Source: Chlamydiales bacterium (GTDB lineage Bacteria; Chlamydiota; Chlamydiia; Chlamydiales; JACRBE01). From it: a stretch of 61,197 bases of DNA. Every line of letters starts with the position of its first letter. Position 1 is the stretch's first letter. The position numbers were made by a program. Shown piece by piece: positions 3,001-15,000 of this stretch. The DNA lies in assembly GCA_016213235.1 (NCBI GenBank), contig JACRBE010000059.1, forward strand, positions 1 to 61,197, given 5' to 3'.

Positions 3001-6000
3001 CATCCCTGTGATTGATTTTTGTAGAAGGGTTGCAAGCAATGAGATGAATAAGAGCGGGCTTTCTGCAACACAGAAAACCGGTATTATAGATTTCATGCAA
3101 GCATTTAGTCAGGTGCAAAGCTCATCTAAAAAAAATAGCGCTATTGATGAAATAATTAAGAATATTATCAATCAATTTCAGATCCTCAATTATCTAAAAG
3201 AGGATCCGGAGACATTTGAAGATAGAAAAGCAAACATGGATGAGTTTATTACGAAGGCAACAGAGTATAAACTGCTTTCTCCGGAAAAATCTTTGAAAGA
3301 TTTTTTAGAAGATATCTCACTGAACAAAGCTGCAATCGAAAATACAAATGCAAATGATCAAATTCAGCTAATGACCCTACATAATAGTAAAGGGCTAGAA
3401 TTTGATTTGGTATTTATGTGTGGTATGGAAGAGGATTTATTTCCTCATGTGAATGCCAGAGATTCTTTTGATGATATTGAAGAAGAGAGAAGGCTTTGTT
3501 ATGTTGGAATGACAAGAGCAAAAAAACATTTGTTTTTAACAGCTTCTAAATACCGAGTACAGTGGGGTGTGCCAAAATATACAAGAATGTCGCGATTTAT
3601 TTCTGAAATTGATCATAACTTTATTTCTGCACAGCAACATATTGCAATAGCCAGTGATGATGAGGAAGGATTTGCGGTGGGATCTAATGTATTTCATGCA
3701 ACATTTGGCAAAGGTACCATAAAAAAGAAATACAATACCTCTTTAGGGATCACTTACGATGTGTATTTTCTTGAAAGCTGTTCTTCTAAGACACTTGTTG
3801 CAAAATATGCAAAATTAACGCTCATTAATCGACTTATAACCAACTGATGCCAAAACAGCAGACGAGAATGTTCTTTAAAGAATATCAAATCTAAACCTCT
3901 ATTAAAGAGCAGGAGAATCTCTCTATGATTTAGAAGCAAAGTGTTGTCTTTTTGCTTCTTCTATTTTTTCAACCCAATATTTCATATAAAGTTTTCTCAT
4001 ATCGTACTTTTTATTTTTGATTTCTTGATATTTTGCATTAAGAAAATCTTCTGTGACGTCACTCCAATCATCTACTATTAATATAGGCAACCCTTGGCAC
4101 AAACCATCTAAGGCCGAAGATTTAACAATCGGAATAGCTCCGACTAGCAAAGCCTCCCAATGTCTATAACAATCAAGCATATCGCCCCAAGGAGAGAGTA
4201 CAAATTTATGATTCGCCATTTCTTCCATATAATCTCTGAAAGGCTTTGGATTGGATGCTGTGACATATGACATGCTTGCAAATCTGTCATGTATAGCCCC
4301 CCGCCCATCATATCTTCCAGGATGAACGGTAAAATTCATATATAGAAGATTTGTTTTAGGTTTGGTCTTAAGTTGTTCAAAATATAGGTTTATTTTCTTT
4401 CTCTGAAAAAATATATTTTCATCTCTGAGTATTCCAAGAGGGATAATTGTGCATTTTGGAAACAATATAGCATCACGGTTACAGTTTGCAAACCATGCAA
4501 TCAACTTCGGATCATTAATATATTTCAAATCTCTCATTGTAGGTCCATGATACAGTGTAACTAGAATATAAGGATTTTTGATTCTTGGATGAATTTCTTC
4601 AAAAAAACTATCAATACTATAAGCCGTAGCAAATATTACACTTCCTTCAGGAACTTGTTCTGGTTCAAAAGGAGTTGCATTTTTAAAATTATGGGCTGCG
4701 CCATCTGAATGATTTGCGTAAGCAAAGTCACAGATATTCATCCAAGTCCACCGTTGAACAAATATTTCTTCCAAATTTTCATTTTTTATTTTTGGGAATA
4801 AACTATTGGACTCTGCAAATCCATAAATGGTTGTTATAAGAAGTAATGCTACAAATAAGTTCTTCATATTTTTTCTGATCTGTTATGGCGGCAAGGCCAT
4901 GTGATATTGTTTTTTGGCAAATAAATAGATTGAATATATGGATTAAAAAAAGTCACGAAATCAGCGATATTACTTGACGAATGAATAAATAAGTCGCACT
5001 TTGAAAGCAACAAACAATCCATAAGAACCCCTTTTCCTCCAAAATAAGCTGGTTTTTTGCGATGGAATTCAGCTGGATGAGTCTTCCAATAATCAGCACT
5101 ACCATAGATTAGATGAGGTTCTTCACGATAGTTACTTCGAAAAGCAGGAATGTGTAAAGCAATACCAGGAAAGTATTTATCAAACTGCTGCACCACATAA
5201 TGGCTATCTGTAGCCAGGAAAATTCTAATATTATTTTTTCCCTTTTCTTGTATTAACCTTTTGGTTTCTAGAATATAATCTTCAACTGTTGGCGTTCCTT
5301 TAGGAGATTCCATAGCGTGGTCACACCCATAACGGACATGAACGCCTATGCAGTAATATCTTTCCATATTTTTTTCATAAAACCGGTCTGTTTCATTAAG
5401 AATCTCATCTTTCACTTTGATATGCTTTTTAATCACATCATGAATAGCCAATCTATAAGGGAAATATTTATCATAAGACATCCACTGTTCAATACAACCT
5501 TGATCGTGCAGTGCGTGATATGATGAACCAGAAATAAGCTTATTGGAGATTTCTATATCTAGGGAAATTTCCTTATTGATCAAGATAGAATCGAAATAAA
5601 GATCCCATCCATTCTCATGAGGGTTATTCTTAAAAGGGAAAAATTCTTGAGTCCAATCAACATAAATTCTCTGTAAATTTTTATGATCAAAAAAGATAAT
5701 ATTATCTACTACCTTATGAAGTTCAGCAAAGAATCCGGCTCCCAAATGAGAACAAATTGTTAATTCTGCAGGAAGGCACTCTTGAGTTTGTTTTGCAAAT
5801 CCGCATATAGAAAGCACCAGAAATAGCAGGTAATGGTTTTTTATGACCAGTTTCTTCATAATTACTGCCCCTTAACAAATGGCACACCGGGGATCTTATA
5901 CTATGATTTTCTAAAATTTCAAGGCATTATTTGAATGCTCATTAAATTTGAGAGCAAAAGATCTTGGGTTGTTGATAGCAAATTAATTTAAAATCGCACA

Positions 6001-12000: not shown

Positions 12001-15000
12001 CATACTTACCTGATGATCGCTAATAGGATTCCTATCGTTATATATGTATAGTATTTTAGAAATAAACTGATAATGATTAGGCCCGCAAAGCTCCATCATA
12101 GGAATCATAGCTGCCATATCCCAGGTCATTTCCAGAAATTTGCCATCATACATAAAATTCTCTTTCTTCAGGTTGTTGAATAACCAGCATCTAAAAGTTT
12201 TCAAGTGAGAAGGGATGTTTTGCCATTTTCTATATGCGTTTTTTGCATTGATATGGTAAGGATAGTCTCGACAAAACCCTAGAACATGACTGTTTTTTTC
12301 CATATATTGACCATAGGTGAGCCATACATCTTTATTTGATTTGCGATAAATGCGGTCTAAATAAGAAAGAACATGTTTGTTGGCGAGCTCATCGTCTCCA
12401 TCTAGAATGACTACTACATTATTGGGCGGTACAAAGCGATGAATAGTGGTATAATAGTTGTAAGCAGCTCCCCTGCGCTCTGCATTTTGAATAAACGTCA
12501 CTCTATGTGTATTGTTTGTTTGCTGAACATAGCGTTGTACTTTTGTAAATGTGTCGTCTTGAGAGCAGTCATCAATGAAATAAATATGAAAATCACTATA
12601 TTTTTGCTCCAGGGCGCTTTTGATATTATCAATGCAGTAGCTTGTATTATTATAGGAAGCGATTACAATGGAAAAACCTGTAGAAGGAGGTTCTGTTTTG
12701 GAAATAATTTGTGGTAAGGACGTGAGAACAGGATATTTTGGTAGTGTTCGGATGTATATATCCAAATCTTTTTGTAGTGTTTTACTAACTCTGTGGTCGC
12801 TAATAGGGTTGTTGTCATTGTAAGTGTATAAAACATCTTTAATAAAACGGAAATTAGGCCCACACATTTCCATCATAGGGAGCATCATGGCCATATCCCA
12901 AGTCATAGGATAAAATTCACCATTATATTTTAGATCCTCAATTTGAATTTTTTTAAAAAGCCAGGAATAAAACGTTCTTAAATGGGATGGAATATGATGC
13001 CATTTACGATAGTCTTGATTTTGTACAATCTTTTCCGGCATAGGGGAACAAAAGCCGATATTTTTCGAGTTTTTCTCCTGAAATTGCCCGTAGGTTAACC
13101 ATACCTTATTATTTTCATCGGAGTACACTTTATTTAAATAGCTTAGCACATTGGAATGAGCTAGCGCATCATCTCCATCCAGTAATACAATGATATCATC
13201 ATCATCGGTATGTTCGTAGATAGAATGAAAAATATTCTTTAGCGCACCGCTTCGAGTAGGGTTATCTATAATGGTTAAGATGTCTTTTTTAGGAGAAGCC
13301 TCAATGATACAGTTAATGATATCGCTTGTAGCATCTGTAGAGCAATCATTGATATAAATGATTTTGTAGTTTGTGTAATTTTGATTAAGGGCACTTTCAA
13401 TATTCCACTTTGCATAGGCTTCATTATTATAAGAAGGAATAATGATAGCCATCGGCTTTTCAGAGGTAGTAGAAAAGAGAGACGAGATTAAAACTGCAAA
13501 TAGTATTGTAAATATAGAGCTTGATATCCATTTGTTCATAAATTACTTCCTCATTTCGGCATGGTTTTTGTCTAAAGCTAAGAGTTTTTTCTCATAGGGC
13601 AGGTTCCAACTTTCTGGATAACAATAAGATGGGTTTAATATTTTTGTGGGAGGATTGTTGATAAAGTATCTGTTGAGATGGCTTTCGTCATGCCAAACAG
13701 CGATGAAGTTTTTTGTTAGATCCGCTTCTATATTGTTGGAAAGAGTCCCACAAAGTTTAACAAATTCTTCCTTGTTTGCTCCATAAAAACCACCGGCAAA
13801 GTAATAAGATCCTTCATTATCATTAATACAAGCCATCGAGATAGGATTGGTTTCATAAGATCCGCGTTTGCCCACAAATCCGGGATGCTGAGTGGCTACA
13901 CGATCGGAAAGGATTTCAGAGCCAACATCTGCAACAAAAAGCATGTCTGCATCACTTGCAAAAATATAATCTAAATCGTTAAAAGCATCTTTATTGTTGT
14001 AATAAACGCTAAATCGCATCATGGTATCATGTGGCCATCCTAGCCTTTTTTGTTCAATACGAACAACATCTTTTGCGGGTTGCAATTGTTGATCAGTAAA
14101 AACAAAGTAGGTTACTTTATGATCAGTGCAAAAATGTTTTCTTGCTGATTCGATAAACGTTTCTGCATAGGTGGCATATTTTCCTGTAGCCATAATACAA
14201 AGACCCACATTTTTGCATTCGCTAAGAGTTACAATTGAAAGAAAACAAGAAATCAGAGAGATTATTAGCTTACGCATGATTTAACCCAACTTTTTAATAA
14301 AAATATGCTGGATAAAATAATTAAATTTGTCAATATTTCTTTCCTGTTTCTATTTATGATTCAAGCAGATATTCGCCTTGGTGTAGATCGTTTTTTTACT
14401 GATGGATTTGCTTTAGAAATTAAAGGAAAAAACGTAGCCCTTTATACGAATCATACAGGAATTAATTCAGAGAGAAAAAGTACCATTGCATTATTTCGGG
14501 AAAAGTCGGGGAAAGATTTTCAGTTTGTTGCCATTTTTACACCGGAGCATGGCATTAACGGTAGCAGTTTTGCTAATGAAAAAGTAGATTCTCAAGTGGG
14601 AAAGATACCCATTTACAGTTTGCATGGTGATGTGCGCCGCCCGAGCGAATCAATGCTAAAAAATGTAGAGGTCATTGTTTGTGATATTCAAGATATTGGT
14701 GTTAGATCTTATACCTATGCAACAACGCTATTTTATATCATGGAAGAAGCGGCTAAAAAAAAGATAGCAGTTGTTGTGTTAGATAGGCCCAATCCACTTG
14801 GAGATGTAGTAGATGGACCTATGTTAAATGATAAATATAGATCATTTGTTGGACATATCAATGTTCCGTATTGTCACGGGATGACGCTGGGTGAACTTGC
14901 TATGTTTTTTAATGAAGAATATAACATACGTGCGGCTCTTAAAGTAGTATCGATGCAGGGATATAAAAGAGATATGGTGTTTTATGAAACAGGTCTTTCA

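Follow-up and report, generated by a model that had tools for sequence, protein, structure and literature searches.

A chlamydial cluster of leader-bearing glycosyltransferases as part of a putative exported, host-fed glycan-building kit

Introduction

All ten proteins encoded at positions 3923-14277 of a Chlamydiales contig (JACRBE010000059.1; the window, i.e. the whole stretch that was analysed, comprises 61,197 nucleotides) start with a Sec-type leader, and a leader is also present on the GDP-mannose 4,6-dehydratase (Gmd) and the ATP sulfurylase/APS kinase (PAPS synthase) of this genome, two enzymes that are normally cytoplasmic. On balance, we favour the view that this cluster is part of an exported kit which would build a glycan outside the bacterial cytoplasm and be fed by host metabolites. 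The leaders were overlooked in the first-pass annotation, which had read the genes as a set of animal-type enzymes for a host-mimicking surface glycan, and they change where such a pathway would work.

Organization of the gene cluster

The ten intact open reading frames (ORFs) are arranged in three blocks of alternating strand (minus, 3923-5859; plus, 6100-9736; minus, 9739-14277), and the cluster is therefore not one operon (Table 1). The stop of the NodZ-like gene and the start of the GT114-like gene overlap by 4 bases, and the likely start of the GT-B gene is 7840, in a frame open from 7798. The gene content and Pfam families of the first-pass annotation were borne out by a renewed Pfam scan, in which Glyco_trans_1_2, like Methyltransf_24, remained below the cut-off among the ten proteins; an NCBIfam scan of the cluster only added a sub-cut-off GT6 match. 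The further members that had been listed were likewise located, namely Gmd in the window, ATP sulfurylase/APS kinase on contig C34, a GT10 on C42, NodZ-like genes on C26 and C33 and a sulfotransferase on C33, and the reported absence of GDP-fucose synthase (Fcl) was reproduced, with none scoring over the cut-off in this 81% complete bin.

Scans for promoters and terminators yielded chance-level matches only, repeats were restricted to short two-copy matches, and Rfam identified a single tRNA, outside the cluster. No RNA sequencing run is listed as containing this DNA, and the only sequencing run in which it occurs is a groundwater metagenome, possibly the source sample, which makes a protist host more likely.

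Table 1. Features of the window that bear on the proposed kit.
Feature	Position	Strand	Evidence
GT114-like GT-B transferase, leader-bearing	3923..4867	-	PDB 8Q8I match E 2e-27; relative of chlorovirus beta-xylosyltransferase A075L
NodZ-like (GT23) putative fucosyltransferase, leader-bearing	4864..5859	-	Pfam NodZ 5e-11; NodZ structure E 4e-5
DUF1796 putative papain-like protein, leader-bearing	6100..6777	+	Pfam DUF1796 2e-14; recurs in 6/78 GT6 loci
SAM-dependent methyltransferase-like protein, leader-bearing	7035..7829	+	Methyltransf_24 below cut-off; relatives in 14/78 GT6 loci
Unclassified GT-B glycosyltransferase, leader-bearing	7840..8820	+	Model pLDDT 93.5; Foldseek matches are GT-B enzymes
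Unclassified GT-A glycosyltransferase, leader-bearing	8837..9736	+	Model pLDDT 92; GT-A matches; invariant D134-x-D136
GT90 transferase, leader-bearing	9739..10911	-	Pfam 1.6e-29; POGLUT2 E 9e-24
Divergent sulfotransferase, leader-bearing	10956..11816	-	Pfam Sulfotransfer_1 7.9e-7
Tandem two-domain GT2, leader-bearing	11935..13539	-	Two GT2 domains, LDGDD motif in each; relatives in 71/78 GT6 loci
DXD-type GT6, leader-bearing	13543..14277	-	Pfam GT6 4.2e-46; D109-A-D111, A161-G-G
Paralogue (45%) of the GT-B gene, leader-bearing	519..1553	+	Across uvrD from the cluster
Leader-bearing protein of kit-recurrent family	21105..22202	+	Family fused to GT11 in two loci
GDP-mannose 4,6-dehydratase (Gmd), 18-residue leader	34044/34095..35192	+	TIGR01472 over cut-off
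TLC ATP/ADP-type nucleotide translocase	44851..46443	-	Pfam TLC 1.6e-184

Export leaders on the cluster proteins

Leaders were called with our own hydrophobicity rule rather than with SignalP; this rule was passed by 10/10 cluster proteins, as compared with 130 of 957 ORFs in the genome background (binomial 2e-9) and 0/23 cytoplasmic controls. The leaders are short, carry positive charge ahead of the hydrophobic run and end in small residues, and they resemble those of the known exported proteins of this genome. Their 19-residue hydrophobicity ranges from 1.2 to 2.3, versus 3.0-3.1 for two long anchors, with two other anchor candidates at 1.8-2.0, and no further membrane spans were detected in the ten proteins. 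The leader is kept in 71 of 74 GT6 proteins (on raw ORF starts only 60 of 83 GT6 ORFs pass), in 23 of 34 Gmd proteins and in 14 of 19 GT90 relatives, counts in which related genomes are not independent. This sequence pattern indicates that the cluster enzymes are very probably exported. Two secretins are also encoded in the genome.

The GT6 enzyme and the question of host mimicry

Among solved structures, the window GT6 is matched best by the bacterial enzyme BoGT6a (E 2e-50, versus 2e-38 for ABO). Its DXD motif (D109-A-D111), catalytic glutamate (E198, in WHDE), minimal domain ending at residue 244 and lack of a C-terminal BHB tail place it in the DXD clade of PaGT6, and Y159, W195 and K237 complete the set of residues read. 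H131, G133 and A234 align with H122, G124 and I228 of BoGT6a, and A161-G-G is the same in both, forming an A-type pocket with room for the 2'-fucose, whereas alpha3GT has Gln, Trp and Trp in place of His, Gly and the small residue. Judged by these residues, the enzyme is a predicted alpha-1,3-GalNAc transferase accepting 2'-fucosylated galactose, and an alpha-Gal product is unlikely, which speaks against the alpha-Gal capping suggested earlier. According to the available text of a report in print since 2012, PaGT6 from Parachlamydia acanthamoebae moves GalNAc onto H-type acceptors with Mg or Mn and makes the A antigen in vitro (PMC3516806). PaGT6 shares with the window GT6 the DXD motif, the minimal domain, the lack of a C-terminal membrane tail and the acceptor and catalytic residues; in contrast, neither a signal peptide nor a gene cluster is mentioned for it in that text, and no GT11 partner was found here (PMC3516806). 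A claim of chlamydial mimicry adds little, the chlamydial GT6 activity being already known.

GT11, the alpha-1,2-fucosyltransferase for the H antigen, was not found in this 81% complete bin with 23 queries, and in a separate Pfam GT11 search of the bin no control matched either. It was also not found in 4 of 7 GT6-bearing relatives (5 of 8 GT6 genomes including this bin), nor in the same-genus genome, and it lies near GT6 in 21 of 78 GT6 loci. Of the blood-group A pathway (GT11, GT6 and GDP-fucose), neither GT11 nor Fcl was found in this bin at 81% completeness. GT6 itself is present in 8 of 41 sampled genomes, and relatives occur in 72 phage records.

An evolutionary origin of the surface glycan as a copy of histo-blood-group or Lewis epitopes of animals would agree with the A-type residues of the GT6, the in vitro product of PaGT6 (PMC3516806, available text), the existence of GT10 and NodZ-like genes and the GT11 genes near GT6 in other loci. 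We nevertheless regard this idea as highly doubtful, as GT11 was not found here or in the same-genus genome, the nearest relatives belong to protist parasites, giant viruses and phages, the GT114- and methyltransferase-type genes suggest non-animal decorations, and the only run with this DNA is a groundwater metagenome.

Other transferases and decorating enzymes

The gene previously labelled RXYLT1-like is instead related to A075L, the GT114 xylosyltransferase of chloroviruses; an RXYLT1 orthologue, with RXYLT1_N and RXYLT1_C along the protein, is ruled out by this match (E 2e-27) and by the finding of only a partial RXYLT1_C (residues 204-311, 9e-10). N178, T180, R189, R235 and E238 match the A075L donor (UDP-binding) residues N148, T150, R158, R208 and E211, and a Gly is found at the place aligned with the catalytic base Asp73, an Asp that is kept in 9 of 12 relatives as read from the alignment. 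The NodZ-like protein reaches 42.4 bits with the NodZ profile (cut-off 28.3), carries the HVR motif and was aligned with NodZ 2HHC, while no FUT8 chain matched at E<=1. The GT90 protein scores 103.5 bits with its family profile and is the only cluster gene with animal enzymes as best solved match.

PAPS-dependent sulfotransferases carry Lys or Arg in the 5'-PSB loop; the window sulfotransferase, with a profile score just over the cut-off, carries Ile-His at the place occupied by Pro-Arg or Pro-Lys in its C33 paralogue and in three relatives. The product of 7035..7829 is a probable sugar O-methyltransferase. The protein encoded at 8837..9736 is without a Pfam match and has the predicted fold of a GT-A glycosyltransferase; a survey of 300 genomes from the order (genome G096 unscored) found it in 26, and the look-alike clusters are mostly from giant viruses. 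For the two unclassified families (GT-A and GT-B), profile searches against PDB sequences gave nothing significant, a viral fold search returned generic GT-A matches only, and a viral-contig scan with the GT-A alignment identified 1 locus from 5 candidates.

Taken as a single glycan-building set, the genes retain from the first-pass annotation a GalNAc-type GT6, fucosyltransferase-like genes and a PAPS supply. The animal-type label is not supported, since the GT6 is nearer BoGT6a than ABO, the NodZ-like gene matches bacterial NodZ, the supposed RXYLT1-like gene matches A075L and the PAPS synthase shares 54% identity with a protein of Fadolivirus. Host blood-group mimicry is likewise not supported, given that no GT11 for the H acceptor was found, that the PAPS-binding loop of the sulfotransferase is altered and that the occurrence of the DNA in a groundwater metagenome favours a protist host.

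Supply of activated donors

In bacteria, the transferases that use nucleotide sugars, like Gmd and ATP sulfurylase, are regarded as cytoplasmic because their substrates are, and Gmd, Fcl, Ugd and PAPS synthase depend on ATP and NAD(P)(H), which are typical of the cytosol. The window Gmd, with a Shine-Dalgarno-like site upstream, cannot begin behind its leader, as there is no start codon between the leader and the Rossmann strand. An in-frame ATG is present at residue 21 of the PAPS synthase, and among nine Fcl proteins with a leader, six keep an ATG close to where the domain begins. A leader is present in the seven best PAPS synthase matches and in only 13 of the top 120; the Fadolivirus protein has none. 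Such internal starts, together with the fact that ordinary bacteria keep all substrates in the cytoplasm, could mean that the N-termini serve as inverted membrane anchors, or are extensions that go unused, and that the enzymes are cytoplasmic as in ordinary O-antigen clusters. This is very improbable in view of the positive charge preceding short hydrophobic runs with small terminal residues, the obligatory leader on Gmd, and the leaderless ordinary copies, which are located apart from the kit, adjoining ManC and Fcl.

Fcl was found in 4 of 10 genomes with leader-bearing Gmd versus 8 of 8 with leaderless Gmd (Fisher p 0.013). The presence of ManC does not track the Gmd leader (3/10 versus 5/8, p 0.34), and the use of host GDP-mannose is therefore something we infer. 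GalE-, Uxs- and Fcl-type orthologues were not found in the 81% complete bin (best 20-31%), and the same-genus genome (97% complete) has kept two NodZ-like genes, with Gmd and Fcl absent. In a tree of Gmd proteins, those with and those without a leader tend to group by type (4 changes versus 9.5 when shuffled, two borderline rows being labelled leaderless); support is too weak to assign a single origin or a direction of transfer. Only 2 of 18 pyrophosphorylases are leader-like, and GlgC is described in the available text of PMC4829429 as the sole enzyme of glycogen metabolism in C. trachomatis that lacks a secretion signal. Overall, the donors are likely to be of host origin.

It could also be envisaged that the bacterium's own finished donors are exported via EamA/DMT transporters and feed a periplasmic 'bacterial Golgi', which would elaborate a lipid-linked core made in the cytoplasm. 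The bin contains a priming sugar transferase and a leaderless Ugd on C35, some loci include flippase-like genes, and the C33 sulfotransferase and NodZ-like genes are followed by an EamA gene that matches TPT and Nuc_sug_transp weakly. Of 78 loci, just one contains a relative of this EamA gene, which speaks against a general kit partner; moreover, there would be little sense in exporting Gmd and PAPS synthase if finished donors were exported, no LpxC was found in five chromosome-level kit-bearing genomes, and no Wzy_C or ligase was found in the bin. Such a route is accordingly rated as improbable.

Distribution and relationship to known systems

The leader-tagged kit recurs across Chlamydiae and Dependentiae, comprising 10-20 enzymes in a composition that varies from genome to genome, and leaderless relatives adjoin a major capsid gene on a giant-virus contig. 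Leader-bearing GT90 genes of relatives adjoin GT9, GT4, ManC and a weak Wzy_C-like gene, and part of the route may for this reason be classical and lipid-linked. Next to the kit, 5 of 78 loci contain collagen-like ORFs, and a BclA_C domain occurs in one case; no collagen-like acceptor of at least 8 triplets was found in this bin.

The enzymes might instead be effectors, which would leave the cell by Sec and type II secretion, reach the membrane of the vacuole or the cytosol of the host and modify glycans, lipids or proteins of either, the missing steps being finished by host enzymes. The cytosol-typical cofactor needs of Gmd, Fcl, Ugd and PAPS synthase would fit, as would the absence of Fcl in 6 of 10 leader-Gmd genomes and of GT11 in 5 of 8 GT6 genomes, gaps that host GDP-fucose or fucosylated acceptors could fill. 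Sec/type II-secreted proteins of C. trachomatis have been observed in the inclusion lumen and cytosol (PMC6717882), and viral relatives act in the host cytoplasm according to the available text of PMC9614988. Nonetheless, a genome-variable set of this size resembles a surface-antigen locus, collagen-like ORFs lie beside it in some loci, and the Pfam scan detected no eukaryote-targeting domain in the ten proteins; an effector role is thus considered unlikely, if less so than the other alternatives.

Classical Wzx/Wzy or ABC O-antigen and capsule clusters combine clustered, strain-variable transferases with donor-synthesis genes, and their transferases are cytoplasmic. The present cluster is alike in clustering, variability and donor-synthesis genes; it differs in having leaders on 10/10 proteins, in lacking a flippase, polymerase or ligase among the ten genes, with Wzy_C not found in the bin, and in that the kit occurs in genomes without detected LpxC. 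Eukaryotes make donors in the cytosol and then import them. The ABO, POGLUT, FUT8 and RXYLT1 enzymes of the Golgi and ER are similar in being nucleotide-sugar transferases that act beyond a membrane, whereas here the donor-converting enzymes are themselves export-tagged and the sequence kinship is mostly remote.

Glycogen synthesis in the inclusion lumen of C. trachomatis also relies, in the available text, on exported bacterial sugar enzymes using a host nucleotide sugar outside the cytoplasm, with the pyrophosphorylase devoid of a secretion signal (PMC4829429), a pattern that the present leaders fit by sequence. That system uses type III signals and makes a storage homopolymer (PMC4829429), in contrast to the Sec-type leaders, the heteroglycan kit and the export-tagged enzymes for donor conversion and PAPS synthesis of the present one. 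Autonomous glycosylation has been described in giant viruses and large phages, including chlorovirus A075L/GT114, a GMD acting on host GDP-mannose and a Moumouvirus cluster with sulfate and papain-like genes; as far as the available texts go, the enzyme families, their clustering and variability and the use of host nucleotide sugars (here presumed) are the same, whereas the viral enzymes have no signal peptides and decorate virions, and the bacterial ones carry export leaders, the A075L base Asp73 not being kept in the GT114-like protein of the window (PMC11571054, PMC9614988). Our literature search found no paper on such an exported glycan-building kit.

Conclusions

In the favoured reading, each enzyme would cross the inner membrane by Sec and act either in the periplasm or, if type II secretion follows, in the vacuole surrounding the bacterium, where the host would provide ATP, GDP-mannose, UDP-sugars, NAD(P) and SAM. 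The TLC ATP/ADP translocase would imply a passage of host nucleotides through the periplasm, the exported enzymes Gmd and PAPS synthase would convert donors on the spot, and the transferases would assemble a lineage-variable glycan containing fucose or deoxyhexose, methylated, possibly sulfated and capped with alpha-GalNAc, a structure in which we place low confidence. The acceptor is somewhat probably the bacterium's own surface. The genes, folds, active-site residues, leaders and leader conservation are directly established. More broadly, the chances seem evenly balanced that protist parasites of two unrelated phyla, Chlamydiae and Dependentiae, have relocated a complete pathway of glycosylation from nucleotide sugars, together with GDP-deoxyhexose and PAPS synthesis, to the outside of the cytoplasm via Sec leaders on a kit shared with giant viruses and phages; operating in the periplasm or vacuole with ATP and nucleotide sugars taken from the host, and with host-suppliable steps omitted, it would be a bacterial, host-fed equivalent of the Golgi.

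The kit is a source of small soluble GT6, GT23, GT90 and GT114 enzymes and of two unclassified transferase families. If the leaders work, these parasites would carry out extracellularly, on host metabolites, a chemistry regarded as cytoplasmic, and the content of vacuole and periplasm would become testable with defined enzymes. The kit would also provide a candidate surface for Babeliales, which are without most LPS genes (PMC4776705), and energy parasitism would be extended from ATP import to the building of a coat.

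Leaders on the cluster proteins and their relatives

The row of genes flanked by uvrD and namZ-groES-groEL comprises ten intact ORFs in three strand blocks, with a GC content of 33.5% versus 36.4% for the bin, and a repeat Pfam search confirmed the labels assigned to them in the first-pass annotation; the cluster is real, and it is reinterpreted here. All ten encoded proteins start with a basic residue, followed by a short hydrophobic run and then small residues, as in a Sec-type leader. The leader rule applied, which is home-made and differs from SignalP, was passed by 130 of 957 ORFs of at least 200 aa genome-wide and by none of the window's 23 cytoplasmic controls. 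Judged by this rule or by eye, leaders are also found elsewhere in the bin on GT10, both other NodZ-like proteins, two sulfotransferase-like proteins and two GT32 proteins, the latter with weak TcdA_TcdB profile matches confined to the DXD stretch, while four further leader-bearing proteins (C11, C25, C53 and the window's first ORF; see table) matched no informative Pfam family.

Among relatives, with identical sequences removed, a hydrophobic leader is present in 71 of 74 GT6 proteins, 23 of 34 Gmd (two more being borderline), 8 of 9 PAPS synthases, 9 of 12 Fcl and 5 of 8 Ugd proteins, yet in only 2 of 18 pyrophosphorylases; the case is less clear for Fcl because 6 of the 9 leader-bearing sequences retain an ATG near the domain start. 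Of the 1107 long ORFs in the best 78 GT6 loci, 641 passed the rule. A ManC-like (locus L058), a GalU-like (L137) and two GlmU-like proteins (L142, L143) are also extended upstream by a leader-like segment and have an internal ATG where translation would usually begin, so dual starts are possible, and in another genome (locus L034) a second leader-bearing Gmd copy is broken by TGA stops. The leader is rare among PAPS synthase relatives (13 of the top 120, including the best seven) and absent from the seven mostly glycan-type ORFs of a giant-virus contig, and on this sequence evidence it is specific to bacteria with the kit, that is, the leader-bearing glycan-building gene set around GT6. The window's Gmd carries the same leader with no start codon downstream of it, and the ATP sulfurylase/APS kinase (PAPS synthase) of the bin carries it too but has an ATG at residue 21. 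A cytoplasmic location of the enzymes is the least probable of the explanations considered.

Kinship and distribution of the enzymes

The cluster had been described as a set of animal-type enzymes, a description that holds at most for GT90, the only member with animal POGLUTs among its best solved matches, while GT6, the RXYLT1-like protein, the NodZ-like protein and the PAPS synthase are nearest to bacterial or viral proteins. GT6 matches Bacteroides BoGT6a at E 2e-50 versus 2e-38 for human ABO, and its relatives occur in 72 phage records. The RXYLT1-like protein matches chlorovirus A075L, reported as the founder of GT114 (PMC11571054), at E 2e-27; it retains five donor-binding residues and lacks the counterpart of the base Asp73 of A075L. 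For the NodZ-like cluster protein the only matches are to bacterial NodZ, the PAPS synthase shares 54% identity with a protein of Fadolivirus, and atlas look-alikes of two cluster proteins, to be taken as leads only, fall in chlamydial, giant-virus and phage clusters.

The A-antigen route requires GT11, which lies within 21 of the best 78 GT6 loci, was matched in only 3 of 8 GT6 genomes with the query used and was not found in this bin. The GT6 residues D109-A-D111, H131, G133, A161-G-G, W195, E198, A234 and K237 fit a metal-dependent GalNAc transferase accepting 2'-fucosylated galactose, an activity already known from the measurements reported for PaGT6 of Parachlamydia (PMC3516806; PMC3961637). 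Evolved mimicry of animal epitopes is very unlikely.

GT6 is present in 8 of 41 sampled genomes, including all five of its own family. The proximity of GT6 and GT2 to uvrD/namZ is kept in four of seven relatives fetched, among which the remaining cluster genes vary. By record titles as given, the best 78 GT6 loci belong to Chlamydiae (23), Dependentiae/Babeliales (16) and other or unlabelled sources (39: Pseudomonadota 9, Verrucomicrobia 4, Flavobacterium 1, unclassified 25).

Features of the window and of related loci (C, contigs of the bin; L, loci; (-), reverse strand)
Location	Feature	Remark
Window 3923-14277	Cluster	
Window 7840-8820	GT-B fold	Structure model
Window 8837-9736	GT-A fold with invariant DXD	Structure model, pLDDT 92; unnamed in first-pass annotation
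Window 14305-15540	NamZ exo-beta-N-acetylmuramidase with leader	Conserved cluster neighbour
Window 1-447 (-)	Leader-bearing protein, relatives recurring in kit	Truncated by contig end
C11:10127-11116; C25:11796-12881; C53:14580-15317	Leader-bearing proteins, relatives recurring in kit	
C8:8001-8993; C8:10111-11055 (L131)	Two GT32-type DXD transferases	Leader-like N-termini
C33:5300-8102 (L119)	Sulfotransferase with canonical PAPS loop, NodZ-like gene, EamA transporter	One row
C35:1482-4271	Leaderless UDP-glucose dehydrogenase, priming sugar transferase	
L130:178-8223 (giant virus)	Seven leaderless ORFs, mostly glycan-type (GT25-like, GT11, GT2-like, GT-A)	Adjoining major capsid gene
L081:107-4540; L102 (Dependentiae)	Rows of collagen-like proteins adjoining kit, one with BclA_C	Candidate acceptors
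Window 17688-20870 (-)	1060-aa protein, Ser/Thr/Pro-rich C-terminal part	No Pfam or NCBIfam match; possible effector
Window 23057-23129	tRNA gene	Directly ahead of TetR-like gene
Window 55351-57532	Two overlapping genes	Presumably resembling an AbiE-kind type IV toxin-antitoxin pair

Donor supply and export

Gmd occurs in 18 genomes of the 41-genome sample, with a leader in ten and without in eight. A GDP-fucose synthase match (E<=1e-40) was obtained in all eight leaderless-Gmd genomes versus four of the ten leader-Gmd genomes (p 0.013, uncorrected for kinship), and five of the six lacking it are 90-96% complete. A same-genus genome (97% complete) has GT6, PAPS synthase and two NodZ-like genes, while Gmd, Fcl and GT11 were not found with the searches used; in this bin no GalE-, Uxs- or Fcl-type orthologues were seen. 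Against a host origin of the donors, ManC presence shows no association with the Gmd leader, and a bifunctional Gmd yielding GDP-D-rhamnose, as reported for PBCV-1 (PMC9614988), would also explain the missing Fcl.

The window encodes an ATP/ADP translocase, from which we infer that host nucleotides cross the periplasm. The EamA transporter on C33 has weak matches to nucleotide-sugar-transporter families, and the C35 pair is a separate cytoplasmic polysaccharide route. A periplasmic pathway supplied with the bacterium's own donors is unlikely. The bin also encodes two secretins, and C. trachomatis Sec/T2S proteins have been reported from the inclusion lumen and cytosol (PMC6717882). Action of the enzymes as effectors on host or vacuole molecules is worth keeping in view as a minority possibility.

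Candidate acceptors

LpxC is present in this bin, which has no Wzy_C match. No LpxC match was obtained in five chromosome-level kit-bearing genomes of our choice from the best 78 GT6 loci, in agreement with the LPS loss reported for Babeliales (PMC4776705), which rules LPS out as the general acceptor. In 5 of these 78 loci the kit is flanked by collagen-like ORFs, one of which has a BclA_C domain; the search for such ORFs in this bin gave none. The leader-bearing GT90 genes of relatives lie near GT9, GT4 and ManC genes, which leaves room for a cytoplasmic core completed outside.

Proposed pathway and significance

The explanation towards which we lean is that the enzymes would be exported by Sec and would act in the periplasm or vacuole, where assembly would be fed by host ATP, GDP-mannose, UDP-sugars, NAD(P) and SAM, the product being a variable coat that would bear deoxyhexose and methyl groups, possibly sulfate, and be capped with alpha-GalNAc. 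Searches of an open-access library turned up no paper describing a Sec-tagged glycan kit, Sec-tagged Gmd or Sec-tagged PAPS synthase from Chlamydiae or Dependentiae, and subscription papers and supplements may bear on this point. This locus contributes the leader on PAPS synthase, an obligatory leader on Gmd, the pattern of missing Fcl and the assignment of the RXYLT1-like protein to GT114.
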